Of a stretch of DNA of 32,000 nt, positions 4,001-31,013 are shown piece after piece. The position numbers were made by a program, and so were the translations under genes. Below the pieces are notes generated by a model. The model did no database searches and had not been told where the DNA came from. It worked only from the letters and a program-made list of their open reading frames with translations. This DNA is from Acholeplasma laidlawii PG-8A (GTDB lineage: Bacteria > Bacillota_I > Bacilli_A > Acholeplasmatales > Acholeplasmataceae). Every line of letters begins with the position of its first letter. Position 1 is the first letter of the stretch. The stretch is from contig NC_010163.1 in the NCBI RefSeq assembly GCF_000018785.1, forward strand, positions 270,001-302,000. The letters are read 5' to 3'.

Positions 4001-4064
4001 AGTTTATGAAGGTGTAACAACTTCTCGTACATTTAATGTGTATGTTCCAGGTACAACAAGATAA
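1035..4064 (+). CDS. Multidomain surface lipoprotein: 3 Big_2 Ig-like domains, a parallel beta-helix region, 2 more Big_2 domains and a C-terminal N-acetylmuramoyl-L-alanine amidase (Amidase_2/PGRP type)
   Basis: There is a lipobox, LITAC, near the N-terminus. Big_2 signatures recur: VTVSNTGLVTALKEGTSVVTVTS, ATVDNNGLVTAVSPGNFKITMT, ATVDDEGTITAHKSGAVTITAT and ATVDSEGLVTSLTSGSVIITAR. Periodic NNKFSD / IEQNEF / INKNII / IQRNSI repeats are typical of PbH1 beta-helix turns. The amidase core lies at about nt 3400-3830, with HWITVHDTAN, VSWHYTID, VAWHAGD, NAIAIEM and FHQHFSGKHCPN (His/His/Cys zinc-ligand pattern). Confidence 0.9.
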   Translation: MKKIFAIFSLVLVSLITACTAIEKPDEITLSLSSGPIQLEVGKTHQLSITTNDTLGYDISSSNHEVVTVSNTGLVTALKEGTSVVTVTSKTNEEVSKSVNIHVTKTYNLVIEEPSTYLWAGQTLQLSFETSGEEVTFKSDNEAVATVDNNGLVTAVSPGNFKITMTLASDISVKAEISLVVYDETSTILLEGDSKLNVGQTTKLSAILGPETAAPALAWSSSDEFVATVDDEGTITAHKSGAVTITATSLTSTEVSATHSILIVNELVVDGEAKTGDKVVVEDLEFEFGTTLFNTLEAALDTATDGAHIYLKNLELLTLTILDKSVTLEGINDQVVAKNLVTIDASDVVIKNIAFNEQGAIHVLQGSSNVSIMNNKFSDLNEAVLQAILVEEAQGLSIEQNEFKTLKHDAIVIDDIISGSLNINKNIIDGAEVAIKLAGSSYSNDTEIFIQRNSISNIEVAFDVSLNDTEILAYARFNAVSSFSKYPAKANLGSNFDFTLNYWGSATLDLNQFENISERMLMGHYESEAVILKEADYDPTAPLFIYITSDLKVLDVNDEIMLEFEYLPYELKDGRFRFRTDAPDTLLVTGTGLLKALSSGQATIRVEASHKFSNAQDSITLDVTTDPGIDLVPSIDTHSLVAGDSVRIEATPFPVTIKDSEVLFESSNSAIATVDSEGLVTSLTSGSVIITARLVSDVEVKQEIYLDFYENLDQNNLMDLITMNQQSHLKMFDFYEIGTGPTYRVVGYESVSNYYFDEVTPDTSLMIPDIYKGKNVRPGLPLSPIPAGYTTYNDKNIHWITVHDTANTATGSGALSHANYLNNQARINGAQVSWHYTIDDKAFYQHIPEGEVAWHAGDGSNLVGQGSYLGGGNRNAIAIEMSVAMGDDLYRIWQRTAKFSAETLVKYNLPREHIKFHQHFSGKHCPNALLVSGLEPKFQKMADIEYKVALEYPGAQISMVSNHPDIIDNMGRVISMPLHNTLASYTVTVVYEGVTTSRTFNVYVPGTTR

Positions 4065-6653: not shown

Positions 6654-6670
6654 GACTTTAGTTTAATTCG

Positions 6671-6701
6671 AAAAGCCCAATAACAAATTGGGCTTTTTGT
6701 T
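6671..6701 (+). terminator. Rho-independent terminator after the surface protein gene
   Basis: The stem is AAAAGCCCAAT / ATTGGGCTTTT with loop AACAA, and it runs into a T-tract (GGGCTTTTTGTTT). Confidence 0.85.
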
Positions 6702-6849: not shown

Positions 6850-8421
6850 ATGAAAAAAATATTTAGCGTATTATTACTGTTAGTCGCAATGTTTGCTCTA
6901 GTAGCGTGTGACAATACAGAAGGTAATGGTAACGATAAAAATTCAGCAACTATAACAGGTGCAGCGGATGTTACAATCAACGTCGGTGATGAGTTCGATC
7001 CGATGAACAATGTTAAAGCTGAAGATACAGTAGATGGAAATATCACTACACGTATTCAAGTAAGTGGTACTGTACTTACAAATACAGCAGGAACTTATAC
7101 TTTAACTTATACAGTAGAAGGTTCTGATGGTAAAGTAACCACAGTAAAAAGAGTTGTAACTGTAGTACAAAATCACACTACACCTCCAACAGAAATCGTA
7201 ATTATGCATGGTGCGCCATATGAGGTTGACCCATTCGATGCTGCTTACTCTGGTAGAGAACAACAAGCAAGACAAAATAAGCAAAGAGAAGTTGAATCAA
7301 GACTTAATGTTAAAGTGGTTTATAAGGCTTACCCTGCGGCAGCTGCATGGGGACCAGACCGTATTAATGAAATAATTAAAGCATCAGTAGCGGGAGCTCC
7401 GTTAGCGGATATCTTATGGACAACCTCTGACTGGACTGCTCAATTAGCTAACGCGAATGCAATTGTTCCAGTTGACAAGTACTTAGAATCAACTGGTGCA
7501 AACATTACGGAAGAAGCTCAACAACTAGGTAGATTTAAGAGTCAATTCTATGCATTCTCAGTAAACAAACCTACAGTTGACGTTGGTCTATACTTCAATA
7601 TTGAGTTAGTTAATGACTTAGGTATTGAAAATCCAGCCGAACTATACAATAACGGTGAGTGGACTTGGTCTAAATTTGAAGCTTGGTCAGATGCCGCTAA
7701 AGCTGCACTTACAAGTATTGGACCTGATTATAAAGTCTTAGGTGGTGTACGTGCAGTATATGCTGAAAATATGATTCCATTAAATGGTGGTTCATTAATA
7801 AACGCATTATCTGGACGTGTTGCATTCCATCAAACAGCTGCATTAGAAACATATAGTTTCTTACATGGTTTATATAATAAAGGTTTATTTGAAGGTTCAG
7901 GTACTTATGATTCAGGATCTCCATTATGGCAATCAGGTAAAGTTGTAATGCACCCAGGTAGTTTCTGGTTCTTAAATGCAGAAAATAGATGGAAAAACTT
8001 AGCGTTTGACCTAGGATTTGTTCCTTATCCATCAAGTGATACATACACCGGTAATTATGTTTCTCCAATCGGTGGTGTTGCAGTGTATACATTATCAAGT
8101 GGACTAACTCCTGCTAAAGAAGCATTAGCATTCCAAGTATGGAATGAAATTCAAATGTGGAAGACAGACACTGAATTTTCAGATGAATTCTACGCAACAT
8201 TAGTACAAAGATTCAATGATGAAGCTTCGATTGATGCTTACCTAAGCATATTTGATAAAACAACATTAGATTTAACAGGTGCATTAGGTATCTCAAGATT
8301 CGCAGCAAATGGTTGGTACGGCGCAGCAAACCTTGCAATCGCTAATGGCGATGCTAGAGGTGAGATGGACAAGATCAGACCTGCTTACGAAGACGCACTT
8401 GCATCATATTTAGGACAATAA
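6850..8421 (+). CDS. Lipoprotein: N-terminal Ig-like (DUF5011-type) domain fused to a family 1 (CUT1) carbohydrate ABC solute-binding protein
   Basis: There is a lipobox, LVAC. The Ig-like segment is ITGAADVTINVGDEFDP...VDGNIT...GTYTLTYTVEGSDGKVTTVKRVVTV. The remaining ~420 aa have sugar-SBP character (aromatic-rich, for example GEWTWSKFEAW and FWFLNAENRW). The RBS AAGGAG lies 7 nt upstream of the ATG. Confidence 0.85.
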   Translation: MKKIFSVLLLLVAMFALVACDNTEGNGNDKNSATITGAADVTINVGDEFDPMNNVKAEDTVDGNITTRIQVSGTVLTNTAGTYTLTYTVEGSDGKVTTVKRVVTVVQNHTTPPTEIVIMHGAPYEVDPFDAAYSGREQQARQNKQREVESRLNVKVVYKAYPAAAAWGPDRINEIIKASVAGAPLADILWTTSDWTAQLANANAIVPVDKYLESTGANITEEAQQLGRFKSQFYAFSVNKPTVDVGLYFNIELVNDLGIENPAELYNNGEWTWSKFEAWSDAAKAALTSIGPDYKVLGGVRAVYAENMIPLNGGSLINALSGRVAFHQTAALETYSFLHGLYNKGLFEGSGTYDSGSPLWQSGKVVMHPGSFWFLNAENRWKNLAFDLGFVPYPSSDTYTGNYVSPIGGVAVYTLSSGLTPAKEALAFQVWNEIQMWKTDTEFSDEFYATLVQRFNDEASIDAYLSIFDKTTLDLTGALGISRFAANGWYGAANLAIANGDARGEMDKIRPAYEDALASYLGQ

Positions 8422-8495: not shown

Positions 8496-11420
8496 GTGAA
8501 GCATTTGAAAAAAATACATATTATACTTTTAGTGTTATTAATTGCGTTTATTACGTTCTTAGTTACGGATACACTAAAGATAGCTTTTGACACAGATCAT
8601 TTAAAATATAACGTCAAATTAGATGTTGAGTCTAATAGAGATACAGAAAATGATTCCTATGTCAAAAACTATCAAAATTACATTGCATCAAATCCAGCAA
8701 CATATCCAAAAGATAAAACAATCCTTGTTTCAGCTAAGGATTTTACACATATTGAGGGGAATTATGAAATCATCAATAATTTTAATGGTGTTGCGGAATC
8801 AGTATTAACTCATGAGGTTGGATCTATTAGTTTACCTGTTGATATTGAAGAAGCAGGATTTTACACTATTAGAGTGAATTACTACGCTTATGAAGGAAAA
8901 AGTTCAGCGATTGAAAGGCGCGTTTTTATTAATGGAGTAGTTCCATTTGATGCAGCTGAAAACGTATTATTCCAACGTTACTACGGTAATGCCGCTGTTA
9001 TTTATCAAGATTACGCAGGTAATGATATTAGACCAAGTCAAGTTGAAAAACCAATTTGGACATCCAAATTGATTGGTGACCCACTTGGTTATATAACAGA
9101 ACCATTCAATTTTTATTTAAATTCTGGTACAAACGTTATTAAATTTGAAAGTTTAAGAGAACCATTATTAATTGATTCTATAGTCATAGAATCGGTAAAA
9201 ACTTTACCAACTTATGAAGATGTTAAAGCACAATATGAGGCTAATAACTATGAAGTTGCTAAAGAAGAACTTCAATTTGTTCAAGCAGAAGATGCTGTTC
9301 GTACGACTTCCCCAACGCTATATCCTTTAAATGATCGTACATCATCAAGAACTATGCCATCCGACCCTACTTTAATCAAATTAAATACCATTGGTGGTAC
9401 AAACTGGGATAAAGCAGGTGATCAAATTACATGGACATTTGAGGTACCAAAGACTGGTCTTTATGAAATTTCCATGCGCGTAAAACAAAGATTGGCTAAT
9501 GGTATGGTCGTCTTTAGAGATATTTATATTGATGGCGAAATTCCATTTGCTGAAATGGAAGGATATGCATTTAAATTCTCTAATGACTGGAGAGTCCAAA
9601 CATTAGGAACAAATGAAGAATCATTCTTATTTTATTTAGAAGAGGGTACTCATGAGTTGACAATGGAAGTATCGTTAGGTATTTATGGTCAACTTATTTC
9701 AGATTTACAAGATGTTATCGATAATTTAAATAAAATCTATCGTGAAATATTAATTTACACAGGACCTAGTCCTGACCCATTTAGAGATTATGAATTAGCA
9801 AACCGTATACCTAATTTAATTTCTAGATTCAAAAGTGAATTAGAACAAGCAAAATACATTAGAGAAACACTAATTGAAGTGTCTGGCAATAGAAGTGAAA
9901 AAACTGGTATCCTGGATACTGTTATTCTTCAATTACAAGACTTTATCAAGCGTCCTCGTAGTATTCAAAACAGTTTATCAACATATGTTTCAAACATATC
10001 TTCATTAGGTACATTAGTTATTCTTTTATCTAGTCAACCACTTGAAATTGATTATTTTGTGCTACATGAACCAGGTGCTAAAATGCCACAATCAACACCA
10101 AGTTTCTTTGAAAGTACATGGTTTGGATTTAGATCGTTTTTAGCTACGTTTACTACAGATTTCTCTGCTGTAGGTCGCGTGGATACTGGTGAAGTAAATG
10201 AAACTATTGAAGTTTGGTTATCTATAGGTCAAGACCAAGCAAACATTCTTAGAAAATTAATTGACGAAACATTTGCCCCGGAAAATCAAATTCAAGTAGA
10301 CTTGAAATTGGTTTCAGGTGCATCATTATTACCTGCTACACTATCAGGTAGAGGGCCTGACGTGGCTATTGGCCAAGCAGACTCAACACCTGTAAACTAT
10401 GCTATGCGTAATGCTGTTTATGATTTAACTCAGTTTGATGACTTTGACGAAATTGCACAAAGATTTATGCCAAGTGCATTAGTACCATATGAATTTGATG
10501 GTAGCTATTATGCATTACCAGAACAACAAATATTTTTAATGATGTTCTATAGAACGGATATTTTTGAAGAGTTAGGTTTAACACCTCCAAATACTTGGAG
10601 AGAAGTTGTTGAAATGATTCCTTCATTACAAAAACATAATTTAGAATTTTATTTACCTGTTCCATTAACTCAAGGTGCTGCAATCATCTTGCCACCAAAC
10701 CCAATATTCTCTACAATGTTCTACCAAAATGATGGTCAGTTCTATATTGATGGTGACAGACAAGCAGGATTTAATGAAGGTAATGGACCTAAAGTATTTG
10801 AACAATGGTCATCATTCTATACAAACTATTCATTCCCGGTAGAAGCGAACTTTAATAACCGTTTTAGAAGTGGTCAAATGCCTATTGGTATTTCTTACTA
10901 CAATACATATAACGTGTTAAGTGTCTTTGCTCCAGAAATCCGTGGTAAATGGAACTTCGTAGCTGTACCTGGTACAGAGTATGTTGATGAACATGGTCAA
11001 ACTCAAATTAGACGTGAAACTGTATCAACAGGTACAGGTGGTATTATCCTAAATCAATCGAATAAAAAAGAAGAGTCATGGGAATTCTTAAAATGGTGGA
11101 CATCTACTGAAACTCAAATGCGTTTTGGTCGTGAACTAGAAGGTATTTTAGGAGCAGCTGCTAGATATCCAACTGCTAACATAGAAGCTATGGAACAATT
11201 ACCATGGACAGTCGATGAATTAACAAAACTGAAAGAACAATGGGCATGGGTACGTGGTATTCCTGAAGTTCCAGGTGGTTATATGACGGGTCGTCATTTA
11301 GACAATGCATTTAGACTTGTATTAAATGAAGCAGCGAACCCACGTGAAACTATTTATGATTACGTACAAATGATTAATGAAGAATTAGCGAAGAAACGCC
11401 GCGAATTCGGATTAGATTAA
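8496..11420 (+). CDS. Membrane-anchored giant solute-binding protein: two tandem CBM-like beta-sandwich modules, a helical linker and a C-terminal SBP_bac_1-type domain
   Basis: The N-terminal TM helix is IHIILLVLLIAFITFLV, with no lipobox. An internal duplication is visible: AGFYTIRVNYYAYEGKSSAIERRVFINGVVPF versus TGLYEISMRVKQRLANGMVVFRDIYIDGEIPF, and FNFYLNSGTNVIKFE versus FLFYLEEGTHELTME. The C-terminal ~400 aa resemble sugar SBPs. The start is ambiguous: GTG at 8496 or TTG at 8505 (MKKIHII...), the latter 6 nt after GAGGTG. Confidence 0.85.
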   Translation: MKHLKKIHIILLVLLIAFITFLVTDTLKIAFDTDHLKYNVKLDVESNRDTENDSYVKNYQNYIASNPATYPKDKTILVSAKDFTHIEGNYEIINNFNGVAESVLTHEVGSISLPVDIEEAGFYTIRVNYYAYEGKSSAIERRVFINGVVPFDAAENVLFQRYYGNAAVIYQDYAGNDIRPSQVEKPIWTSKLIGDPLGYITEPFNFYLNSGTNVIKFESLREPLLIDSIVIESVKTLPTYEDVKAQYEANNYEVAKEELQFVQAEDAVRTTSPTLYPLNDRTSSRTMPSDPTLIKLNTIGGTNWDKAGDQITWTFEVPKTGLYEISMRVKQRLANGMVVFRDIYIDGEIPFAEMEGYAFKFSNDWRVQTLGTNEESFLFYLEEGTHELTMEVSLGIYGQLISDLQDVIDNLNKIYREILIYTGPSPDPFRDYELANRIPNLISRFKSELEQAKYIRETLIEVSGNRSEKTGILDTVILQLQDFIKRPRSIQNSLSTYVSNISSLGTLVILLSSQPLEIDYFVLHEPGAKMPQSTPSFFESTWFGFRSFLATFTTDFSAVGRVDTGEVNETIEVWLSIGQDQANILRKLIDETFAPENQIQVDLKLVSGASLLPATLSGRGPDVAIGQADSTPVNYAMRNAVYDLTQFDDFDEIAQRFMPSALVPYEFDGSYYALPEQQIFLMMFYRTDIFEELGLTPPNTWREVVEMIPSLQKHNLEFYLPVPLTQGAAIILPPNPIFSTMFYQNDGQFYIDGDRQAGFNEGNGPKVFEQWSSFYTNYSFPVEANFNNRFRSGQMPIGISYYNTYNVLSVFAPEIRGKWNFVAVPGTEYVDEHGQTQIRRETVSTGTGGIILNQSNKKEESWEFLKWWTSTETQMRFGRELEGILGAAARYPTANIEAMEQLPWTVDELTKLKEQWAWVRGIPEVPGGYMTGRHLDNAFRLVLNEAANPRETIYDYVQMINEELAKKRREFGLD

Positions 11421-11434
11421 GAAAGAGGGTCTAT

Positions 11435-12364
11435 ATGCAAGCAACAATTAAACGAGATTTCAAAACTAGATCCAAACAAATGTGGAAAGAGATGAAAGAA
11501 GCCAAACATTTATATGTTTTAATGGCACCTTTTATCATACTATTCTTCACTTTCACAATCATTCCGGTTGTTATGTCACTTGGTATTAGTTTTACACAGT
11601 TTAATATGTTAGAAGCACCTCGTTTTGTGGGCTTTGATAACTATATTAAATTGTTATTAGATGATGAAATATTCATCATCGCTATTAGAAATACACTAGT
11701 ATTGGCGGTTGTTACCGGACCAGTATCCTATTTATTAGCATTCGTATTTGCTTGGTTAATTAACGAGCTTAAACCAAAATTACGTGCATTTATGACTTTA
11801 GTCTTTTATGCACCCTCAATTAGCGGTAATGCATTTTTAATTTGGTTACTTATCTTTTCTGGTGATGTTCATGGATATGCCAATGCATTCTTAATGCAAT
11901 TTGGTATTATCAATAACCCGATACTGTGGTTAAGAGATCCAGATTACATGCTATTTGTTATTATCCTAGTTCAATTATGGTTAAGTTTAGGTGTGTCCTT
12001 CCTTGCCTTCATTGCTGGGTTACAAAGTGTGGATAAAACACTTTACGAAGCAGGTAGTATTGATGGAATCAAAAACAGATGGCAAGAATTATGGTTTATT
12101 ACAATTCCAAGTATGAAACCACAATTATTATTTGGTGCCGTAATGCAAATTACCACATCCCTTGCGATTGCAGAAGTTTCTATGCAGCTTGTAGGGTTCC
12201 CATCTGTACAGTATGAAGGACATACAATTGTAACGCACTTAATTGACTATGGGTCCATTCGCTTTGACTTAGGTTATGCCTCAGCAATTGCGACTATCCT
12301 ATTTATAATTATGATTAGTGCCAACTTAATTGTCCAAAAATTCTTAAGAAAGTTGGGTGAATAA
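11435..12364 (+). CDS. Carbohydrate ABC transporter permease (MalF/LplB-like), pair 1
   Basis: The protein is multi-TM. It has the EAA-loop motif YEAGSIDGIKNRWQELWFITIPSMKP and a basic N-terminal segment typical of LplB/YteP-type permeases. Confidence 0.9.
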   Translation: MQATIKRDFKTRSKQMWKEMKEAKHLYVLMAPFIILFFTFTIIPVVMSLGISFTQFNMLEAPRFVGFDNYIKLLLDDEIFIIAIRNTLVLAVVTGPVSYLLAFVFAWLINELKPKLRAFMTLVFYAPSISGNAFLIWLLIFSGDVHGYANAFLMQFGIINNPILWLRDPDYMLFVIILVQLWLSLGVSFLAFIAGLQSVDKTLYEAGSIDGIKNRWQELWFITIPSMKPQLLFGAVMQITTSLAIAEVSMQLVGFPSVQYEGHTIVTHLIDYGSIRFDLGYASAIATILFIIMISANLIVQKFLRKLGE

Positions 12365-12366
12365 TT

Positions 12367-13251
12367 ATGCAAATCGTAAAAGATTTCATGATGAAAAGAA
12401 AAATCAAGAAGAAAAAAAGACTCAACCGTTCTATAGGTGGAGACATTGCGTTATTCATTTTACTAGCATTGTTTGGTATTTTCTCAGCTTATCCATTAAT
12501 TATGACTGCATCTAATGCATTCAAACCACTAGATGAGTTGTTTGTTTTCCCACCAACATTATTACCAAGAAACTTAACATTCAATAACTTTAGAGACTTA
12601 TCTGAATTAATTGGAAACTCTTGGATACCATTCTCTAGATACTTCTTTAATACAATATTTGTAACAGTAGTCGGTACAGCAGGACACGTACTAATCGCTA
12701 GTATGTGTGCTTACCCACTTGCTAAATACAAATTTCCAGGATCAAAGATTATATTCATGTTAGTAGTGTACTCATTAATGTTTGCACCTCAAGTTACTGC
12801 TACACCAAACTATATTATCGTATCTTGGGTTGGTTTAATTGATACACCATGGGCAATTATTTTCCCTGCAATCGCTTCTTCACTAGGTTTATACTTAATG
12901 AAGCAATTTATGGAACAAGTGCCTACGGAGTTAATTGAGTCAGCTAAAATCGATGGTGCAAGTGAATATCGTATATTTTTCCAAATTGTTATGCCACTGG
13001 TAAAACCAGCATGGTTGACATTAATTATTTTACTCTTCCAAAGACTATGGACTACTGATGGTGGTGCATTTATCTTCAGTGAAGAATTGAAACCTCTATC
13101 ATTTGCACTACGTCAAATTGCACAAGGATCTATTGAACGTGCAGGGACAGTTGCAGCAGTAGGGTTTATTATGATGATTGTTCCAGTTGTGTTCTTTATA
13201 TTCTCACAATCTAAGATTGTGGAAACATTTAGTACATCTGGTCTGAAATAG
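12367..13251 (+). CDS. Carbohydrate ABC transporter permease (MalG/LplC-like), pair 1
   Basis: The EAA loop reads ESAKIDGASEYRIFFQIVMPLVKPA. There are about six predicted hydrophobic helices. A 2-nt gap separates it from the upstream permease. Confidence 0.9.
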   Translation: MQIVKDFMMKRKIKKKKRLNRSIGGDIALFILLALFGIFSAYPLIMTASNAFKPLDELFVFPPTLLPRNLTFNNFRDLSELIGNSWIPFSRYFFNTIFVTVVGTAGHVLIASMCAYPLAKYKFPGSKIIFMLVVYSLMFAPQVTATPNYIIVSWVGLIDTPWAIIFPAIASSLGLYLMKQFMEQVPTELIESAKIDGASEYRIFFQIVMPLVKPAWLTLIILLFQRLWTTDGGAFIFSEELKPLSFALRQIAQGSIERAGTVAAVGFIMMIVPVVFFIFSQSKIVETFSTSGLK

Positions 13252-13260
13252 GAGGATTAT

Positions 13261-15075
13261 ATGAAATTATTTACACTCATATCTCTTTTATTTACATTAC
13301 CATTAAACTTTTCAATTATAAGATATAACTTCTCATACTATGGTGATGTAATTCATTCAGCGCCAGGCTTAAGTTATGCACAGACTTTTAGTGAGAGAAC
13401 ACTAGAAACTGATATGGTCACTCCTGAAGATCTTGTGGTTTATGAAAACGAAATATATATTATATCTAGTGGTTCTAATGCATTAATCGTTGTGAATAAT
13501 AATTTTGAATTAAACCAATCTGTGAAATCATTTGAGATAAGCACAGCATACAGAAATTTTCTATTTGACACTACTGAGGGTTTATTAGAAGCTCATACAA
13601 CGCTTAAGTCAGATGTAGCAGTCCAGCTAAATACTGCAAAATTAAATGCTAATGAAAGTATGGCATCTCTAGTATTCTTAGAAGCTGAAGCTAAAAATGT
13701 ATTTATAGCAGATATTGATGCTCTACATGCAACACTTAACACAAAAGTTACATCAAGTTTTAATCCATCAACTATTGTTGGCACAATTACAGAAGCTAAT
13801 ACAGAGTTTAAAAAAATTGTTGATCTAGCAATTGATGCAGATGAAGCAGCAAGAATTGAAAAAGGATTAGAACGTGGTGAGAACACAGTTTTAAACTATA
13901 AAAATGCTACATCGGTTGAAAAGGACGAAATCCTTAACGTATTGGAAGCACAAACATTAAACGGACCTATGGGACTTGATGTTCAGCATACTGGTATCTA
14001 TATTGCAGATACTGGTAATAATCGTATTGTAAAATTAAATCATAACTTCGAGGTAGTAGATTTATTTACTGAAGTTGATGATGTAACCTTTGAAACAGTC
14101 GACTTTATTCCTGTAAAAATTACTACAGACTCAACGGGTAGAATGTATGTTGTAGCTAGAGAAATTTACGAAGGTATTTTAGAATTAGATACTGACGGAT
14201 CATTTAACAGATACACAGGGGTCAACCCAATCACTTTATCTCCAATTGATATCTTTAACCGCTTTTGGATGAGTGATGCACAAATTGACAAATTACCTAA
14301 GTTCTTACCTACAAGTTATACAAACGTTACAATGAACTCAGAAAACTTTATTTATGCAACCTCATTACCATCTACAAACAACTCTGATAACATGATTCAA
14401 TTAATCAACCCTAAAGGTGTTGACGTACTTATCCGTAATGGATACCACGTACCAAAAGGAGACATACAATTTGTTGAAGGCATGAATAACTACGTTATCG
14501 ATGGTCCATCAAGACTAGTAGATATTGCAGTGTACCAAGATGGTATTTATACAGTATTAGACGCTAAACGTTCAAGATTATTTACTTATGACTCAGAAGG
14601 TAACCTATTATATGTTAATGGTGAAGCTGGTCAACAATTAGATAAATTCACAAACGGTGTAGCACTTGCTTATTTTGGTGATAATTTATTAGTATTAGAC
14701 AAAGAACTTAGAACAGTTATAGTTTATGAACACACAGAATTTGGATCTAAAGTAAATGAGGCAATTCATCACCATGAAAATGGAGAATTTGAATTAGCAG
14801 CTCAACTATGGGAAGAAGTCTTAGTATTAAATACAAACTATGAAGTAGCATACAACGGTATTGGTAAGTATCATTTAAGAAATGGTGATTATGAAAAAGC
14901 TATGGAATATTTCCAATATGGCTATGACAAATATTACTATTCAAGAGCTTATAAATCATATCGTAATGAGTTAATTAAATCAAACTTTGGTTACATTATG
15001 CTTGTTGTATTATTAATTCCTACAGCACTGATTACATTAAAACAAATTAAAAAAAGAAAGGGTAGACTAAAATAA
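13261..15075 (+). CDS. Extracytoplasmic NHL-type beta-propeller protein with a C-terminal TPR segment and C-terminal TM anchor; function unknown
   Basis: The N-terminus is hydrophobic. NHL-like blades are present (for example GLDVQHTGIYIADTGNNRIVKLN, TDSTGRMYVVARE, LVDIAVYQDGIYTVLDAKRSRLFTYDSEGN). A helical insert of ~120 aa sits between the first two blades. The TPR-like part reads GEFELAAQLWEEVLVLNTNYEVAYNGIGKYHLRNGDYEKAMEYF. The terminal helix FGYIMLVVLLIPTALITL is followed by KQIKKRKGRLK. The RBS AGGAGG lies upstream. Confidence 0.8.
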   Translation: MKLFTLISLLFTLPLNFSIIRYNFSYYGDVIHSAPGLSYAQTFSERTLETDMVTPEDLVVYENEIYIISSGSNALIVVNNNFELNQSVKSFEISTAYRNFLFDTTEGLLEAHTTLKSDVAVQLNTAKLNANESMASLVFLEAEAKNVFIADIDALHATLNTKVTSSFNPSTIVGTITEANTEFKKIVDLAIDADEAARIEKGLERGENTVLNYKNATSVEKDEILNVLEAQTLNGPMGLDVQHTGIYIADTGNNRIVKLNHNFEVVDLFTEVDDVTFETVDFIPVKITTDSTGRMYVVAREIYEGILELDTDGSFNRYTGVNPITLSPIDIFNRFWMSDAQIDKLPKFLPTSYTNVTMNSENFIYATSLPSTNNSDNMIQLINPKGVDVLIRNGYHVPKGDIQFVEGMNNYVIDGPSRLVDIAVYQDGIYTVLDAKRSRLFTYDSEGNLLYVNGEAGQQLDKFTNGVALAYFGDNLLVLDKELRTVIVYEHTEFGSKVNEAIHHHENGEFELAAQLWEEVLVLNTNYEVAYNGIGKYHLRNGDYEKAMEYFQYGYDKYYYSRAYKSYRNELIKSNFGYIMLVVLLIPTALITLKQIKKRKGRLK

Positions 15076-15713
15076 TGAATAAAATTAAAAATATTTTAAC
15101 AGATTATCTATCCTTTCCTAAATATTTAATGATGCATCCATTTGATGGATATGATGAATTTAAAACAGAAAAGAAGGGTAAATTGAGTGTTGCGATCGTT
15201 TTTATTGCACTGTTTGCATTATTACGTATCTTAACTTATCAGTATGAAAGTTTCTTAATTAATGAACGTAATCCAATGTTAATTAATAACCTACAAGAAA
15301 TCTTTGTAGTTGGATTATTAGTCATTTTATTTGTAACTGCAAACTGGTCAGTCACAACACTAATGGAAGGTAAAGGGAAATTTAAAGAAATCCTTATGGT
15401 AACAGGTTATGCATTATTCCCTATTATCATTATTGGTTACCCAGCCTTACTTATTTCAAACTTCTTAACATTAGATGAAATGGCATTTTATACACTTGCA
15501 GTAGGTGTTGCATATTTCTTAACGGGTTGGATGTTGTTTATGGGTATTTTAAATATCCATCAATACGGTCTATTAAAGACAATTATGGCATTTCTTGCAA
15601 CTGTTATATCTATGATGGTGATGATGTTCTTAGGATTATTATTCTTTGACGTTATTCAACAAATCATCTCATTCATTTCTGCAATCATTGAAGAATTGGG
15701 GTTACGAAGATGA
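15075..15713 (+). CDS. Yip1-family polytopic membrane protein
   Basis: The protein is 212 aa. A cytoplasmic N-terminal segment (PFDGYDEFK) is followed by about 5 hydrophobic helices, the architecture of bacterial Yip1-domain proteins. It is coupled on both sides: TAATG with the upstream gene and ATGA with the downstream gene. Confidence 0.7.
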
Positions 15714-18292
15714 TATTTATTAAAAAACATTATATTAAACTAATTATTGGTTTTCTTGGATTTGCTTTAATTGCATTTGTTGCGATTGGGGTACCACTTT
15801 CTAAAACAACTTATGCACATCAGACCACTCAAAGTTTTGACAAAGAAGGGTTTGTAGAAGCAACTAAAGATTCTAATCCAAATAAACTTGTTGCTGAAAA
15901 TGCAAACTACCAATTATTTTTAGATGAAACAACTTCATACTTTAAAGTTGTTGATAAAGCATCAGGCTATGTCTGGGAGTCCAACCCAAGCGTTGAAGAC
16001 GACCGATTAGGTACAACGCCAGCTGCTAAAAATAGACAAAAAGCTACATTAGAATATAACTATTATAATGAGGCTGGTTCTGTTGCAACATCTAATAACT
16101 ATGCACTAAGTATTTCTCACCCACAAGGTGTGAAAAATGATGCTGGTGAACGTACTTACCAAATTCGTTATGTAGAAAATGGGTTCCAAGTATTATATGT
16201 CATTGGTAATATTGATATTACAAACTTATATTTCCCAAGATATATCTCAAGTGAATTAATGGAATCTTTCGATCCGGATATACGTGCAGAATTAGAATTA
16301 TTCGCATATGGCCAATTTGATGCCGAATTAGATGCATTCTTTATTCAATCTTATTCAACTGAATTAGCTCGTGGTGTTAAAACAAGACTTTATAGAATTT
16401 TCTATGAAACGCTAGGTTATACATTAGAGGATATTCAAGAAATGAATTTCGAATATGGCATCACAGAAGAAGCTGAACAAACTGAATTTGAAATTGCTGT
16501 AGAAGTTAAATTAGAATCACATGGTATTAATGCAAAAATTATTAGAGACTCCATCGTTGAAAGAAATGGTAGATTATCTGAAATATCATTATATCCAATG
16601 TTTGGTACAGCACATATGACTGTTAATAATGAGGACTCACAAGGTTACTTATTTATTCCAGATGGTAGTGGTGCTATTATGGAATTTAATAATGGTAAAA
16701 CAAACCAGTCAGCTTATAGAAAGCGTCTTTATGGTATGGATTTATCCCAAATGCCAATGAAGATGGCTGAACAACAACAAAAAATTAGTTTACCAGTCTT
16801 TGGTATGGTGAAAGAAGAAAATGGATTTGCAGCAATCATCACAGAAGGTGATGCAATGGCTTATGTGAATGCTGACGTTTCAAACCGTAGAGACTCATAC
16901 AACCGTATTTATGCTTCATTCCAAATTAGAGAAACTGAACAAGTTATCTTAGGTTCTGGATTCAACCAATATGGTATTACATTACTTACAAAAGATATTG
17001 TAAAAACTGATTTTGAAGTAGAGTTCCACTTTATTAAAGGCTTAGAAAACAACTATGCAGGGATTGCTAAAGTATATCGTGATTACTTAATTGAAAATCA
17101 TGGCTTAACAAAAACTGATCATACAAATACGATTCAATTAACTGCAGAATTCTTAGGTGCATTTGATAAAAAAGATTTCTTCTTAGGTATTCCTTACACT
17201 TCTTTAGACAGTCTAACTACATTCAAACAAGCACTTGAAATACTTGATGAATTAGAAACACGTGGTATTAATGATATCAATGTGAACTATCTAGGTGCTG
17301 CAAATGGTGGTTTAGTCAACCAATTATATGATAGAAATACCATTCCTTCAGTTTTAGGTGGTAAATCTGAGTTTGTTAAATTCAATGATGAACTCACAGG
17401 ACGTGGTATTGATCTATATCAAAATGTGAATTTTGTATCTACAAAATCATATAGAGGTATATTCGATGAATCAATGTACAATACAAAGAGAATTCGTGGT
17501 TCACAATCACTATTATATGGATACCATTACCCATCACTTCTACCAAGTTCAGAACTTCCAACTGGTAAGAATTTAGACCAATACCTTTTAAATCCACTTT
17601 ACTATCAGGCGTTATATAACAAATTTAGTAAAGAAGTATATACAAATGGACTAAGTTTAGGTATGATTGGTTCACAAATTGTGTCTAATCATGATTTTAA
17701 CAATACAATTTACAAGCAAGATGCTTTAATTATTCAAAAGAACTTATTAGAGACAATTAATGAAGATATGATGATCTCAAATCCACTTGGATTTGCTATT
17801 CCATATGCTACAAGATTTGATAGTCTACCTACAGAAACCACATTATATGGTTTAATTGATTATCCAGTTCCATTTACGCAACTAGTATTAAGTGGGTATA
17901 AAGATTACACGGCAGACTCTATGAACTTATCAAGTAACCGTAGTCCGAGATTCCAATTCTTAAAAGCTTTAGAAACGGGATCAAACATTAAATATACGTT
18001 ATCTTATGATAGTTCTCAAAAATTACTCAACACAGAGCATAACCAATATATGTCAACGCACTATATTAACTGGTTAGACACAATTGAAGCTCAAGTTAAA
18101 GAATTAAATACAATTAATATTTCAAGCGGTGCTTTAATTGCACACGAAAAACTAGCAAACTTTAATAACGTATACAAAGTAGGTTATTCTAACAACTTAG
18201 AAATGATCATTAACTACAACCTATTTAGTATCACAGTAGAAGGTGTAACAATTCCAGCAATGGATTACCATATTACGAGAGGAGCAGCCTAA
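15710..18292 (+). CDS. Membrane-anchored ~860-aa extracytoplasmic protein, DUF5696-like; function unknown
   Basis: There is a single N-terminal TM helix ([18 protein letters not shown]) and a large soluble domain with no motif I can assign to a characterised enzyme family. The size and the position after a Yip1 gene match what databases label DUF5696 (recalled, not verified). The stop overlaps the next start (TAATG). Confidence 0.7.
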
Positions 18293-19236
18293 TGCAAGAT
18301 ACAGTACATTCAAACCAAGTTAATCCAAAAGGCAAAAAGAAGTTTGAAATGACCTATGAACGTCAAAAACTATTTTGGGCTGCGGTCTTCTTACTACCTT
18401 GGTTTATTGGTTTATTATTACTATTTATAGTGCCATTTTTTCAATCACTAAATTATAGTTTTTATAAATTAACTCCTCAAGTAGGATCTATACTCTTTGA
18501 GTATGTCGGTTTTGGTAACTATTTATTTGCATTCAATGAGCACGTAAGTACTTCAACATCTACAAGCTTTAGTGTCGAAATGATTAACACAATGTCTGAT
18601 GTAGCGTTTAATATTCCTGTTTTATTAATTTTCAGTTTATTTATGGCTGTATTATTAAACATGAAATTCAAAGGTCGTGCAATTGTTCGTGCAATCTTCT
18701 TCGTACCAGTTATTCTAAACTCAGTTGCAGTTGCTTCTGCTTTAGGTGGTGGCTCAATTATGACTGAAATCTTAGAACAACAAGGTATTGGTAAAATATT
18801 TGATTTACAATTTTTCCTAATTCAATCTGGTTTACCAGAAATCATGGTAAATTCAGTCGTTGGATTAATTGATCGTATTTACGACATTTTATCATTAAGT
18901 GGTGTGCCAATATTACTCTTTTTAGCAAGTATTCAATCGATTCCAGGTCATTTATATGAAGCGGCAAAAATTGAAGGTGCTACTGGATATGAAACATTTT
19001 GGCTAATTACTTTACCAAACGTGACCCCTCATATTTTAACGGTTGTGGTATATGCGCTCGTAGATACATTCTTAACATCTCCAGTATCTGGTATTATTCA
19101 ACATGAATTAAATACACAAAACTGGGGTTTGAGTTCAGCGATGGCATGGATATATGTACTATTTATATTAGGTACTCTCCTAGTTGTCTTTGTATTAGCT
19201 AAAATATTTAAGATAGGAGGTTCACATTATGAATAG
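18292..19236 (+). CDS. Carbohydrate ABC transporter permease (MalF-like), pair 2
   Basis: The EAA loop reads YEAAKIEGATGYETFWLITLPNVTP and the protein has multiple TM helices. It overlaps the next gene by 8 nt. Confidence 0.9.
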   Translation: MQDTVHSNQVNPKGKKKFEMTYERQKLFWAAVFLLPWFIGLLLLFIVPFFQSLNYSFYKLTPQVGSILFEYVGFGNYLFAFNEHVSTSTSTSFSVEMINTMSDVAFNIPVLLIFSLFMAVLLNMKFKGRAIVRAIFFVPVILNSVAVASALGGGSIMTEILEQQGIGKIFDLQFFLIQSGLPEIMVNSVVGLIDRIYDILSLSGVPILLFLASIQSIPGHLYEAAKIEGATGYETFWLITLPNVTPHILTVVVYALVDTFLTSPVSGIIQHELNTQNWGLSSAMAWIYVLFILGTLLVVFVLAKIFKIGGSHYE

Positions 19237-20227
19237 TAGAATTACTGCTAATTTGGGCTTAGGTCAACTTTCATTAGTTGAAGCAGCAAAAGAACGTGGT
19301 AAAAATATAAGACGCGTTCGTAAATTTCAAAGTATCCTCATATCTGTTTTAAGAGCACTATTACTAGGTGGATTATGTTTTATTATTCTATATCCTGTAA
19401 TCCAACAAGTATTACTTGGACTTAGAGCACCAATAGATGCCAATGACCCTTCTGTAGTGTGGGTTCCAAAAAACTGGAGTTTTCAAAACTTTAGACTGGC
19501 AATGCTCGTATTGGATTACTGGAATGCACTATTAAATACATTTAAATTAAGTGCCATCTCAATGGTTTTGCAAGTAGCATCTACCGCACTTGCAGGTTAT
19601 GCATTCTCAAGACTAAAATTTAAAGGTAGCGAAATATTATTTATCTTTGTTATCTTAACTATTGTTATTCCACCACAAGCACTATCGCTAGCTCAATATC
19701 TATATTTTAGAGATTTAGGATTGATTGGTAGCGAAAACGCAATTTACCTAATGAGTGGCTTGGGTCAAGGGATTAGAAGTGGTATTTTCATTTATATCTT
19801 TAGAAGTTTCTTTAAAGGATTACCAAAAGAACTAGAAGAAGCTGCACAAGTAGACGGTGCATCAGTATTTAGAATTTTCTGGAATGTTATGTTGCCAAAC
19901 GCACGTGGTGCAATTATTACAGTAGGATTATTTGCGTTTGTATGGCAATGGAATGATACTTATTATGCGAGTATCTTCAACATTTCAACCGAGGCATTCC
20001 CGATACTTACAATGCGTTTAGTTAATGCTGCTGAAAACGTATATGCTGCACTCTTCTATTCAGGTGCACTAAGCTTAATTGGGCAAGACGTATGGTCTAA
20101 CCCGATGTTCTTAGCAACCATTTCAAACGTTGCAGCCTTACTCATGATGTTACCATTATTGGTTATGTACTTATTTGTACAAAAACAATTCGTTGAATCG
20201 ATAGAAAGAACAGGTATTGTCGGCTAA
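19229..20227 (+). CDS. Carbohydrate ABC transporter permease (MalG-like), pair 2
   Basis: The EAA loop reads EEAAQVDGASVFRIFWNVMLPNARGA and the protein has multiple TM helices. Its stop overlaps the next start (TAATG). Confidence 0.9.
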   Translation: MNSRITANLGLGQLSLVEAAKERGKNIRRVRKFQSILISVLRALLLGGLCFIILYPVIQQVLLGLRAPIDANDPSVVWVPKNWSFQNFRLAMLVLDYWNALLNTFKLSAISMVLQVASTALAGYAFSRLKFKGSEILFIFVILTIVIPPQALSLAQYLYFRDLGLIGSENAIYLMSGLGQGIRSGIFIYIFRSFFKGLPKELEEAAQVDGASVFRIFWNVMLPNARGAIITVGLFAFVWQWNDTYYASIFNISTEAFPILTMRLVNAAENVYAALFYSGALSLIGQDVWSNPMFLATISNVAALLMMLPLLVMYLFVQKQFVESIERTGIVG

Positions 20228-20883
20228 TGAAAAAAGATAAAAAACAATATGATAAAACACTCTATCAAAAATTAAATATATTTGCAGATTGGGTTATTCG
20301 TTTGGTCGTGATCAATATCTTAATTATTGTTACTAGTTTACCTATTATTACCTTATATCCAGCATTACTTGCTGGATATAAGATGTTTCATAAATACTTA
20401 AATAAAGAAGAAGTGCCAATATTTAAATCATACTTCAAGTTCTTCACAGAAAATATTGCACAAAAATTAAAAATGGGTTTAATATTAGCAGCGGCTATAT
20501 TTGTTGGCGTGATCAATATCACAATCTACAATGACTTCTTAGAAGCAAATCCTTCACCATTTAACTTGGTTGGACAATATGTGATGGTTGTTATGGTATT
20601 AAGTGTCATCTTTGTTACGATGTATACTTTCCCATTAATGATTACATATCCAAACACCAATGTATGGTTAATGGTCAAATTTTCATTTTTCTTAAGTGGT
20701 AAATTTATTGTAAGAACAGGATTAGCAATTATTACACTATTTATCCCAATTGTATTACTAGTACATCCATTACTGACATTAATCTTAGTGTTTATTGGAA
20801 TGTCTACCATGGTATTACTATATGCACTTATCTTTAGCAAAGTTGTAACATATGTCGAAGGATTGGATGGAGAAAATGTTTAA
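20227..20883 (+). CDS. DUF624/YesL-like integral membrane protein
   Basis: The N-terminal pattern LNIFADWVIRLVVINILIIVTSLPIITLYPALLAGYKMF and a 5-6 helix membrane body are typical of YesL-family proteins encoded next to CUT1 sugar transporters. Confidence 0.7.
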   Translation: MKKDKKQYDKTLYQKLNIFADWVIRLVVINILIIVTSLPIITLYPALLAGYKMFHKYLNKEEVPIFKSYFKFFTENIAQKLKMGLILAAAIFVGVINITIYNDFLEANPSPFNLVGQYVMVVMVLSVIFVTMYTFPLMITYPNTNVWLMVKFSFFLSGKFIVRTGLAIITLFIPIVLLVHPLLTLILVFIGMSTMVLLYALIFSKVVTYVEGLDGENV

Positions 20884-30938: not shown

Positions 30939-31013
30939 TGGAGCCGGTGAGCAGGATCGAACTGCCGTCTAAGCCTTGGCAAGGCCTTGTAATAACCATT
31001 ATACGACACCGAC
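30939..31013 (-). tRNA. tRNA-Gly (anticodon GCC), CCA encoded
   Basis: The reverse complement reads GTCGGTG-TC-GTATAATGGTTATTAC-A-AGGCC-TTGCCAA-GGCTT-AGAC-GGCAG-TTCGATC-CTGCT-CACCGGC-T-CCA. This gives a 7-bp acceptor stem (one G-U), a 5-bp anticodon stem with loop TTGCCAA (anticodon GCC), and a T arm with TTCGATC. Confidence 0.92.

Follow-up and report, generated by a model that had tools for sequence, protein, structure and literature searches.

The three genes that lie between two ABC permease pairs in Acholeplasma laidlawii PG-8A, coding for an NHL-propeller/TPR protein, a Yip1-family membrane protein and a DUF5696 protein, are fixed in a recurrent cassette distributed across Bacillota and the wall-less Mollicutes, and very probably encode accessory subunits of a transporter. 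The eight-gene cassette hosting them is best read as a portable, general glycan-uptake platform, whatever degradative genes follow. The trio is apparently undescribed, as no description of it, or of the twin-importer cassette, was found in a literature search.

The stretch of DNA analysed (the window) spans 32,000 nt of NC_010163.1, from 270,001 to 302,000 of the forward strand, and positions are given within it. The relevant features are:

1035..4064, + strand: surface lipoprotein; four Big_2 domains, beta-helix, Amidase_2 (Pfam); signal and lipobox-like LITAC
6669..6699, + strand: terminator-like (intrinsic) hairpin, 13-bp stem and T-rich tail, closing the upstream unit
6850..8421, + strand: small SBP (SBP523), 523 aa; lipoprotein-type signal, Ig-like domain and SBP_bac_1 (Pfam)
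8496..11420, + strand: giant SBP (SBP974), 974 aa; N-terminal signal anchor, two CBM35/CBM6-like repeats, coiled coil, CUT1 SBP domain
11435..12364, + strand: permease 1a, UgpA/MalF-like (BPD_transp_1; NCBIfam)
12367..13251, + strand: permease 1b, UgpE/MalG-like (Pfam; NCBIfam)
13261..15075, + strand: bitopic NHL-propeller/TPR (NHL-TPR) protein, 604 aa; N-terminal hydrophobic helix, propeller and TPR, C-terminal TM helix
15075..15713, + strand: Yip1-family membrane protein, 212 aa; PF04893 at 43.4 bits (cut-off 28.6), five hydrophobic segments
15710..18292, + strand: DUF5696 protein, 860 aa; PF18952 at 555.9 bits over residues 240-853, single N-terminal anchor
18292..19236, + strand: permease 2a, divergent UgpA-like (Pfam; NCBIfam)
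19229..20227, + strand: permease 2b, UgpE/MalG-like (Pfam; NCBIfam)
20227..20883, + strand: DUF624/MusI-like membrane protein; PF04854 at 41.5 bits
20852..25369, + strand: lineage-specific cargo, namely NamZ, GH3 (NagZ-like), BadF-type sugar kinase and MurQ etherase (Pfam; NCBIfam)

The three ORFs of the trio and their hydrophobic anchors are as originally predicted, and the trio is flanked by two complete CUT1-type permease pairs, each made of a UgpA/MalF-like and a UgpE/MalG-like protein (Pfam, NCBIfam). Coupling of the three genes to each other and to both flanking permeases had also been proposed. Reading of the sequence bears this out at three junctions, NHL-TPR/Yip1 (TAATG, a TAA/ATG overlap at 15073-15077), Yip1/DUF5696 (ATGA overlap, 15710-15713) and DUF5696/permease 2a (TAATG overlap, 18290-18294), but not upstream, where permease 1b and the NHL-TPR gene do not overlap and are separated by a 9-nt gap carrying a GGAGG Shine-Dalgarno. 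The 6669..6699 hairpin is probably followed directly by the start of the cassette operon. A terminator scan revealed no convincing terminator from 6700 up to the trio, the next one being found only past it, and the cassette through the trio is therefore likely one transcription unit. The protein encoded at 20227..20883 scores 58 bits against the NCBIfam MusI_fam model, under that model's cut-off; its gene is an optional extra, found in loci of Acholeplasmatales, of the Erysipelotrichaceae type and of some Clostridia.

NHL, TPR, Yip1 and DUF5696 domains had been expected in the trio. Yip1 and DUF5696 score above cut-off; NHL (18.6 bits, cut-off 20) and TPR_2 (24.4 bits, cut-off 27) remain below, but are supported by the AlphaFold model of the protein (pLDDT 77). 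The model features a propeller of six blades, the top PDB matches of which are the NHL domains of TRIM2/TRIM71 (E about 2e-8). Residues 493-574 form a helical TPR tail, and each terminus bears a hydrophobic helix. The helical/coiled-coil insert of about 120 aa (residues about 95-220) is confirmed, as are the five helices of the Yip1 protein. The insert is found only in the A. laidlawii lineage: homologs measure about 491 aa, and conservation over the insert is 0. The C-terminal TM helix is present in 45 of 46 NHL-TPR proteins, and the propeller and TPR are predicted to be extracellular. In 16 loci NHL-TPR and Yip1 make up a single fused ORF, and NJ trees indicate that the fused/unfused state switched at least 6-8 times. 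In the fusions the outside propeller/TPR is followed by the C-terminal TM helix, which leads into the cytoplasmic N-terminus of Yip1. Because they have been fused repeatedly, and with compatible topology, the two proteins are, judging from their sequences, two halves of one unit.

Gene order was surveyed in the best 80 of at least 587 matches, ranked by similarity to the query, and distant DUF5696 members may differ. The cassette consists of eight collinear genes, in the order giant SBP (CBM-bearing), two permeases, NHL-TPR, Yip1, DUF5696, two permeases. Among these 80 matches, 59 of the 60 loci with enough flank host the whole collinear cassette, giant SBP included, as anticipated for the three families beside a giant SBP and CUT1 permeases. 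Host groups are Acholeplasmatales, Paenibacillaceae, Lachnospiraceae, other Clostridia and Erysipelotrichaceae. Where flanks allowed, NHL-TPR was found in 68/69 loci, Yip1 in 72/73, permease 2b in 71/71, and permease 2a, always directly behind DUF5696, in 75/75. Independent gene calls with precomputed Pfam assignments give the same order, also in representatives about 30% identical. No ATPase gene resides in the cassette at any locus examined. The synteny and the 16 fusions uphold the view of the trio as a genuine undescribed unit linked to two ABC importers. Downstream cargo differs from locus to locus, and includes GH38, GH30, GH35, GH53, GH26, GH10 with GH67, NAGPA, GHL10, GH20, GH2, GH130 and pectate-lyase-like genes. 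It is because the same cassette adjoins so many different sugar-degrading genes that it qualifies as a general platform, and the specificity for MurNAc/GlcNAc attributed to the trio in the original prediction is not supported.

The idea that the trio feeds two importers is too symmetrical as well. Partial loci and co-divergence place it with importer 2 and SBP523, and not with SBP974 and permeases 1a/1b. In mirror-tree comparisons, in which all correlations are inflated by the phylogeny common to all genes, DUF5696 co-diverges with SBP523 (Spearman rho 0.88), NHL-TPR (0.78) and permease 2a (0.72), but correlates with permeases 1a/1b at only 0.41-0.44; SBP974, permease 1a and permease 1b correlate with one another at 0.82-0.87. 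A minimal locus in Treponema consists of DUF5696, permease 2a and permease 2b alone. Another locus (L066) retains a fused NHL-TPR::Yip1, DUF5696, permeases 2a/2b and an SBP523 homolog, and neither a giant SBP nor permeases 1a/1b could be recognised in it. In evolutionary terms DUF5696 belongs with permeases 2a/2b and with the small SBP, which evolves fast. SBP523, which carries a lipobox-like motif in 35/46 homologs and has a median identity of 25% across lineages, is the variable, substrate-specific partner of this module. The giant SBP (41% identity; nearest PDB relative Lin1841, 5ysb, E 3e-24) and the first permease pair (median identity to non-Acholeplasma loci 63% for 1a, 57% for 1b) make up a module of their own, conserved to an unusual degree.

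DUF5696 is an ectodomain anchored in the membrane, remotely homologous to GH129-like TIM-barrel glycosidases and derived from them; the N-terminal anchor is found in 203 of 215 family proteins. The glycoside-hydrolase fold expected for the 860-aa protein is indeed there: its model (pLDDT 86.7) is made of a beta-sandwich, a TIM barrel and a second beta-sandwich, and Foldseek matches it in the PDB to DagB (5opq, E 1e-29) and NagBb (5wzr, 6e-23), followed by GH101, GH36 and GH31. The family profile matches the PDB at E 4.8e-12, and a GH129-like profile with a probability of 96.9% over 635 columns (HHalign); a barrel-only profile yielded no GH match in the PDB. The "processing" role assigned to the trio fares less well, as the alignment revealed, in the A. 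laidlawii protein, no clear counterparts of the catalytic acids of DagB, its nearest characterised relative. D486 and E517 of DagB align, with low confidence, to S655 and S690; the family Asp columns 652 and 660, near S655, are Met and Asn; the sole catalytic acid with a candidate counterpart (D704) is E531, and the family-invariant D717 pairs confidently with a non-catalytic Ser of DagB. Conserved residues of the main family include D245, D318, D344, E378, D652, D660, D717, N739, E755 and H812, and the invariants PDGSG, YGxD, D717, N739, E755, H812 and N835 lie away from the DagB/NagBb acid positions. At the candidate nucleophile column only 81% of main-family proteins have Asp, and none of the Acholeplasma clade does; this clade lost E378 and D660 and gained the clade-invariant D586, E615 and D623. 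The putative catalytic constellation has been remodelled in this clade. Conserved polar residues are identical across cargo types, a pattern explained no less well by an unchanging partner or ligand than by an enzyme with substrate specificity. The arguments for catalysis in the main family are evenly balanced, and catalysis by the A. laidlawii protein is rather unlikely; for that protein a module for binding and hand-over, or an enzyme with an altered mechanism, is likelier than a classical GH129-type hydrolase.

In A. laidlawii the operon is a MurNAc/GlcNAc catabolic one, encoding NamZ, GH3, a BadF-type kinase, MurQ (395 bits) and NagB, and cassettes of Acholeplasmatales are always followed by NamZ, GH3, kinase and MurQ. 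These four proteins lack N-terminal hydrophobic segments, and are thus presumably cytoplasmic. The 32,000-nt window encodes no recognisable lysozyme-type enzyme. The amidase at 1035..4064 (N-acetylmuramoyl-L-alanine amidase) likely removes the peptides of foreign peptidoglycan before uptake. The best reading is that the A. laidlawii cassette is used for scavenging peptidoglycan sugars, not for recycling, since the host has no wall.

The explanation that fits best, and could equally turn out right or wrong as a whole, is a twin CUT1 ABC sugar importer in which the trio are accessory subunits, and obligate ones, alongside the four permeases and the giant SBP. The membrane-anchored giant SBP, whose coiled-coil stalk bears two CBM-like domains, would catch glycans on the cell surface. 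The GH129-like ectodomain would sit above importer 2 and bind the captured chain, and in most family members would probably trim it into pieces for SBP523 and permeases 2a/2b to take up. The NHL-TPR/Yip1 unit would be the membrane scaffold joining ectodomain and transporters, and a shared MsmX-type ATPase encoded elsewhere would give ATP. In Acholeplasma the amidase would strip peptides, MurNAc-GlcNAc oligomers would be imported, and cytoplasmic NamZ, GH3, kinase, MurQ and NagB would finish the job. The full chain of capture, processing and import is somewhat less likely than not.

SBP974 and permeases 1a/1b (41% and 57-63% identity) are much more conserved than would be expected if they transported chemically diverse glycans, and the capture model does not account for this.

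Alternatively, DUF5696 may be a fully active ecto-glycosidase, founder of a new GH129-related GH family, which depolymerises glycans at the membrane, the propeller/TPR-Yip1 unit being a mere tether. The nucleophile position being now Ser/Asn, catalysis would possibly be substrate-assisted, and in Acholeplasma the protein would be the cleaver of glycan strands that the peptidoglycan locus otherwise lacks, in line with the lack of a recognised lysozyme-type enzyme in the window and of signal sequences in the exo-enzymes NamZ and GH3. Fold and homology, the many acidic and aromatic residues conserved in the main family, the co-divergence with the substrate-specific SBP, and the residue change in the Acholeplasma clade, a coordinated replacement and not decay, all speak for an enzyme. 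However, GH129 and GH101 enzymes target alpha-linked sugars, while the cargo genes point to beta-xylan, beta-mannan, beta-galactan and beta-1,4 peptidoglycan besides alpha-mannosides; the candidate nucleophile is missing from the Acholeplasma clade, the conserved constellation is cargo-invariant, and the barrel alone finds no GH match. Such an enzyme is possible, though doubtful.

An assembly, stability or regulatory device making no contact with the substrate, in which a Yip1/TPR chaperone-scaffold is combined with a degenerate GH-like lid, is a less probable solution still. It would explain why the conserved DUF5696 residues are independent of cargo and the DagB catalytic acids are not conserved; TPR and propeller are typical protein-protein interaction modules, and YknW, which modulates YknXYZ assembly, and MusI are precedents. 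Yet 860 residues of extracellular, GH-derived protein, a dozen of them polar or aromatic and invariant, are a high price for a pure scaffold. Moreover, few parts evolve as fast as DUF5696, and its divergence follows that of the substrate-specific SBP, which suggests substrate contact. Very improbable is a surface module specific for peptidoglycan or amino sugars within the MurNAc/GlcNAc pathway. The constant downstream genes of Acholeplasmatales, and the conserved acid set peculiar to DUF5696 of the Acholeplasma clade, are compatible with it; the same-order cassettes of Paenibacillaceae and Clostridia with GH38, GH26, GH10/67, GH53, GH35, GH30, GH2 and pectate-lyase-like cargo are not. As a general statement it is refuted by the cargo survey, and is tenable only for the Acholeplasma clade.

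DUF5696 shares with DagB and NagBb the distorted N-terminal beta-sandwich, the (beta/alpha)8 barrel and the C-terminal beta-sandwich, as well as the motifs EN..L.v..d..T..F.V.dK.SG.vW.S.P (N-terminal), Y..MAk.Y (in the helix opening the barrel) and P.F..v.H. In contrast to them, it is membrane-anchored, about 170-200 aa longer, encoded in an ABC importer operon, and devoid of recognisable equivalents of DagB D486/E517 or of the NagBb acid pair D435/E478 (PMC5698469). YknW, a small polytopic Yip1 protein needed for assembly of the B. subtilis YknWXYZ ABC complex (PMC4887032), had been correctly named as a precedent, and the Yip1-family protein described here is likewise encoded with an ABC transporter. 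YknYZ, however, belongs to the MacB-type exporters and has a membrane-fusion protein, whereas the partners here are CUT1 type I importer permeases and their SBPs, and an extracellular NHL-propeller/TPR protein is coupled to Yip1, often as a fusion. MusI (DUF624) is an essential extra membrane protein of the CUT1 maltose importer MusEFGK2I of Corynebacterium glutamicum (PMC13008276). A DUF624/MusI-like gene lies directly 3' of the cassette in A. laidlawii, but MusI is one small protein serving one importer, while the trio comprises three proteins, with two large ectodomains, between two importers. Sus-like utilisomes of Bacteroidota combine SusC/D, surface glycan-binding proteins and a surface glycoside hydrolase. 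They offer a functional analogy only, in that genes for glycan capture, for a GH-fold protein at the surface and for transport lie together, and the core is reused for many glycans; there is no homology, and those systems are outer-membrane and TonB-dependent, whereas the cassette encodes a cytoplasmic-membrane ABC system. Pathways that recycle or scavenge peptidoglycan sugars include NamZ-NagZ-AmiE-MurQ in B. subtilis and MurNAc scavenging in Tannerella forsythia. NamZ, GH3, kinase, MurQ and NagB of A. laidlawii, together with the upstream amidase, match such a pathway, but uptake proceeds via the twin ABC cassette, not via PTS (MurP) or MurT/AmpG.

The cassette built around the NHL-TPR, Yip1 and DUF5696 genes (the trio) is best read as a glycan utilisation locus based on ABC importers, in which the trio would form a new, conserved accessory complex. 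The plus strand carries all genes of interest in the window, in the following order.

First gene, plus strand: beta-lactamase-fold protein
Next gene, plus strand: surface lipoprotein of 1009 aa with Big_2 repeats, a beta-helix and an Amidase_2 domain
4215-6653, plus strand: 812-aa protein with an N-terminal signal, a C-terminal TM helix and a weak Big_13 hit
6669-6699: strong terminator-like hairpin
6850-8421, plus strand: SBP523, the small SBP
8496-11420, plus strand: SBP974, the giant SBP
Next two genes, plus strand: Perm1a and Perm1b, the upstream permeases
13261-15075, plus strand: 604-aa NHL-TPR protein
15075-15713, plus strand: 212-aa Yip1 protein
15710-18292, plus strand: 860-aa DUF5696 protein
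Next two genes, plus strand: Perm2a and Perm2b, the downstream permeases
20227-20883, plus strand: DUF624/MusI-like membrane protein, directly 3' of Perm2b
Next gene, plus strand: NamZ
21942-23573, plus strand: GH3
Next four genes, plus strand: BadF-type kinase, MurQ, GNAT and NagB
26583-27941, plus strand: 452-aa protein
Next gene, plus strand: LmbE-like deacetylase

Taken as a whole (28-28803), the locus resembles a complete peptidoglycan-scavenging set in the wall-less Acholeplasma, with an Amidase_2 lipoprotein at the surface, the twin importer in the membrane and, in the cytoplasm, NamZ, GH3, kinase, MurQ, GNAT, NagB and LmbE-like deacetylase. The 812-aa protein has no NCBIfam match, and might act at the surface as a further part of the peptidoglycan system; an 812-residue product is encoded at the same upstream position in a related locus (L085). 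A sub-threshold ROK match is the sole family lead for the 452-aa protein, and 452-aa ORFs clustering with each other are found at the same position in three related loci (L001-L003). With its TTG start as listed, the GH3 gene would overlap NamZ by 74 nt; the true start is probably located downstream, given the later Met codons in the N-terminal sequence (e.g. ...MKKFDINKL...). The only Rfam match within the window is a tRNA gene on the minus strand (30942-31013).

Genes of the trio had been described in the original prediction as translationally coupled to each other and to the flanking permeases. The junctions read from the sequence (TAATG at 15073-15077, ATGA at 15710-15713, TAATG at 18290-18294) confirm the overlaps within the trio and with the downstream permease. 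The upstream permease does not overlap the 604-aa gene, the two being separated by a 9-nt gap carrying a Shine-Dalgarno sequence.

A one-genome-per-species scan with the DUF5696 alignment yielded at least 587 confirmed matches. Synteny was analyzed in the best 80 of these loci, which reside in Acholeplasmataceae, Izemoplasmatales, Paenibacillus, Cohnella, Lachnospiraceae, other Clostridia, Erysipelotrichaceae and one Treponema, by searching component HMMs made from labelled proteins against stop-to-stop six-frame translations. Among these best 80, the collinear order SBP974-Perm1a-Perm1b-NHL/TPR-Yip1-DUF5696-Perm2a-Perm2b was found in 59 of the 60 loci with enough flanking sequence, as expected if the trio is syntenic across genomes. 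The same order emerged from independent gene calls and precomputed Pfam annotation, including DUF5696 representatives at about 30% identity. Chance adjacency is ruled out by this collinearity, along with the gene fusions described below.

The degradative genes that follow the cassette, here called cargo, are diverse. Outside Acholeplasmatales they encode GH38, GH30, GH35, GH53, GH26, GH10+GH67(+GH3), and also NAGPA, GHL10, GH20, GH2, GH130 and a pectate-lyase-fold protein; the associated regulators are LacI or AraC-type response regulators. This survey rules out MurNAc specificity of the cassette, and the notion of a peptidoglycan-specific trio, put forward in the original prediction, is refuted as a general statement. 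Several cargo glycoside hydrolases begin directly with the catalytic domain, leaving no room for a signal peptide, which fits import of oligosaccharides followed by cytoplasmic breakdown; in the window, the N-termini of NamZ, GH3, kinase and MurQ are devoid of hydrophobic segments. The DUF624/MusI-like gene recurs in cassettes of Acholeplasmatales, of Erysipelotrichaceae type and of some Clostridia, is absent in Paenibacillus, and its product is a candidate fourth accessory component.

None of the trio proteins matches a named NCBIfam family. The Yip1 protein is a member of PF04893 (43.4 bits versus a cut-off of 28.6; model positions 2-171 of 173), and features five hydrophobic segments corresponding to the polytopic core. 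DUF5696 is likewise assigned by Pfam, as had been anticipated. The NHL and TPR domains, also anticipated, fall under the Pfam cut-offs in the window protein (NHL 18.6 versus 20 bits; TPR_2 24.4 versus 27; TPR_1 22.8 versus 27.8), but are supported by the predicted fold. The AlphaFold model of the 604-aa protein, which is 100% identical to an A. laidlawii entry, exhibits a six-bladed propeller with blade regions at pLDDT >90, best matched in Foldseek searches by the NHL domains of TRIM2, Thin, TRIM71 and Lin41 (E 2e-8 to 1e-6), a tail of paired TPR-like helices at residues 493-574, and hydrophobic helices at the termini. PF01436 (NHL) matches occur in many orthologs, and TPR_1, TPR_2 and TPR_11 matches were found in orthologs as well. 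The helical insert of about 120 aa predicted within the propeller corresponds to a coiled coil (residues ~95-220, window 13543-13920; pLDDT >90). It is confined to the A. laidlawii lineage, orthologs being about 491 aa long, and conservation across the insert is zero. Residues ~320-418 (14218-14514) are modelled at pLDDT 29-46, yet are conserved like the blades and rich in invariant residues; the segment may need a partner in order to fold.

In 16 loci NHL/TPR and Yip1 form a single ORF, and the fused and unfused states alternate at least 6-8 times on crude NJ trees. Such recurrent fusion argues strongly for a single functional unit made of both proteins, in the topology deduced from the distribution of charges around hydrophobic segments (positive-inside rule), which would place the propeller/TPR moiety, the DUF5696 body and SBP974 outside the cell.

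The 860-aa protein is a full-length member of PF18952 (555.9 bits versus a cut-off of 25.6; model positions 2-612 of 612), a family of about 4,000 clusters at 50% identity, and shares 93-99% identity with entries from A. laidlawii and from metagenomes. In eight loci of Erysipelotrichaceae/Bacilli type (L012, L016, L035, L038, L041, L051, L057, L088) large extra segments bring DUF5696 to 1040-1270 aa, permease 1a to 450-490 aa and NHL-TPR to 620-980 aa. In the AlphaFold model (pLDDT 86.7, pTM 0.86) a TM helix and a beta-rich N-terminal region are followed by a (beta/alpha)8 barrel and, at the C-terminus, a beta-sandwich; this is the three-domain GH129-like fold. A glycoside hydrolase fold had been suspected in this protein, and was indeed retrieved by Foldseek, which matched the model to the GH129-like enzyme DagB (5opq; E 1.3e-29, target TM 0.68) and to NagBb (5wzr; E 5.6e-23, TM 0.69). 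Similarity is detectable also by profiles. The family profile hits DagB (4.8e-12) and the GH129 enzyme NagBb (5e-6) in the PDB, with an alignment restricted to the N-terminus, the beginning of the barrel and the C-terminal domain. HHalign against full-length DagB homologs, fetched from marine metagenomes through a 48-aa fragment, gave 96.9% probability over 635 columns at 18% identity. A barrel-only profile found no glycosidase in the PDB, and Pfam GH129 did not match the window protein at E ≤0.01. At the sequence level the similarity of DUF5696 to GH129 is significant but only remote.

Mutation of D202, D486, E517 or E531 inactivates DagB, and D486 is the counterpart of the NagBb catalytic residue D435 (PMC5698469). 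The HHalign alignment is full-length, but of low confidence around D486 and E517: D486 is paired with S655 of the window protein, and E517 with S690 (the second catalytic acid of NagBb is E478). E531 is found opposite D704, at about 50% confidence, and the adjacent column 705 carries D, E or N in about 87% of family members. The Asp columns nearest to the expected catalytic position, 652 (Asp in 60%) and 660 (Asp in 81% of the main family), host Met and Asn in the window protein, Ser/Asn throughout the Acholeplasma clade. The family-invariant D717 is paired, with high alignment confidence, with a non-catalytic Ser of DagB. By this alignment the window protein is a GH129 relative in which the expected catalytic Asp has no recognisable counterpart. 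Acids conserved family-wide (215 sequences) are D318 in a PDGSG motif, D344 in YGxD, D717 and E755. The main family additionally keeps D245, E378, D652 and D660, whatever the cargo type; E378 and D660 are replaced in the Acholeplasma clade, which has gained D586, E615 and D623 as invariant residues of its own. Judging from these residues, DUF5696 may be either an enzyme whose catalytic centre has been shifted or altered, or a binding module derived from a glycoside hydrolase.

Both transport sets are CUT1 importers, each composed of F-type and G-type BPD_transp_1 permeases and a family-1 SBP by Pfam and NCBIfam, the Pfam score of Perm2a (25.2) being just under the cut-off of 26.4. No ORF combining Walker A and LSGGQ, as expected for a cognate MalK/MsmX-like ATPase, was found inside the cassette in 81 sequences. 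Only four such ORFs occur, all outside the cassette on the minus strand, and three of them belong to a flank cluster whose representative is of exporter type (ABC_membrane + ABC_tran); the ATPase is assumed to be shared and encoded elsewhere. SBP974 is signal-anchored; two CBM35/CBM6-like repeats and a coiled-coil segment accompany its CUT1 SBP domain, the nearest relative of which is the sophoro-oligosaccharide binder Lin1841. The small SBP is a lipoprotein in most loci. Components of the cassette are unevenly conserved.

Median identity of the window proteins to their counterparts in non-Acholeplasma loci
Perm1a: 63%
Perm1b: 57%
SBP974: 41%
Yip1: 40%
Perm2a / Perm2b: 38% / 39%
NHL/TPR: 36%
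DUF5696: 28%
SBP523: 25%

Mirror-tree analysis, in which only the contrast between correlations is meaningful because shared ancestry inflates the values, separates SBP974, Perm1a and Perm1b (rho 0.82-0.87) from SBP523, NHL-TPR, DUF5696, Perm2a and Perm2b; DUF5696 correlates best with SBP523 (0.88), least with Perm1a/b (0.41-0.44). Partial loci agree with a split into two modules. In a Treponema sp. MAG (L073:9815-14267) DUF5696 is accompanied only by Perm2a/2b, and SBP, NHL-TPR and Yip1 are not nearby; another locus (L066) has an NHL-TPR::Yip1 fusion, DUF5696, Perm2ab and an SBP523 homolog, and the giant SBP and first permease pair are not recognisable. The neighbours of the Treponema locus are housekeeping genes, encoding FliG, an M16 peptidase, a GyrB/ParE-like protein, a SPOR protein and AdhE. 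SBP974, and especially Perm1a/1b, are far more conserved than the second importer despite chemically unrelated cargo. Such conservation across cargo classes, the most intriguing point left over, is not accounted for by the twin-importer model.

The reading that best fits the trio is an ecto-complex accessory to a twin CUT1 importer, the whole working as a general glycan-uptake platform. The basis for a role as ABC accessory subunits is genomic throughout, and consists of synteny, fusions and translational coupling. NHL-TPR and Yip1 would provide the membrane scaffold, and importer 1 and the giant CBM-bearing SBP a conserved capture module; importer 2 and the small SBP would be served by DUF5696, an ectodomain derived from GH129. 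In Acholeplasma the platform would be dedicated to scavenging peptide-free peptidoglycan fragments, which would then be delivered to cytoplasmic NamZ, GH3, kinase, MurQ and NagB.

Two main rivals are to be weighed against the accessory complex. DUF5696 may be an active ecto-glycosidase of a new family, a view to which the GH129-like fold and the conserved acids lend weight. Alternatively, the role of the trio may be purely structural or related to assembly. A bolder extension of the accessory-complex reading, which we deem rather unlikely, envisages a single membrane supercomplex, a Gram-positive/Mollicute counterpart of the Bacteroidota utilisome, in which the GH129-derived ectodomain and the NHL-TPR/Yip1 scaffold couple the two importers for selfish uptake of long glycans. 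Module 1 (giant CBM-SBP, Perm1a/1b) would be a substrate-independent engine or capture device, module 2 (DUF5696, small SBP, Perm2a/2b) would confer specificity, and the GH-like subunit would have been re-tooled in the Acholeplasma clade for peptidoglycan strands.

Gram-positive bacteria take up glycans mainly through ABC importers, for which the usual picture is one SBP, two permeases and one ATPase. The cassette is a widespread architecture made of four permeases, two SBPs and three conserved proteins of uncharacterised families, reused in xylan-, mannan-, galactan-, mannoside-, amino-sugar- and peptidoglycan-related loci of soil Paenibacillaceae, gut and rumen Lachnospiraceae and Mollicutes. 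Working it out would assign a function to DUF5696 and to clades of bacterial Yip1 and NHL-TPR proteins, could establish either a new family related to GH129 or a pseudo-enzyme of GH descent, and would explain how a wall-less Acholeplasma feeds on the cell walls of other bacteria.

A literature search retrieved nothing on DUF5696, PF18952 or the gene combination of the cassette, nothing relevant for Yip1 + SBP + GH + ABC or for YIP1 family protein + TPR + Paenibacillus, and no paper joining Acholeplasma with MurQ. Trio and cassette are real, far more general than originally held, and apparently undescribed. Known systems offer partial parallels. DagB and NagBb have fold and remote homology in common with DUF5696, but their catalytic residues do not appear to be kept. 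YknW is a Yip1 accessory of a MacB-type exporter (PMC4887032), and MusI is an additional membrane protein essential to a CUT1 importer (PMC13008276); both are precedents for regarding the trio as putative ABC accessory subunits. The likeness of the cassette to the Bacteroidota utilisome is functional, and drawn by analogy.
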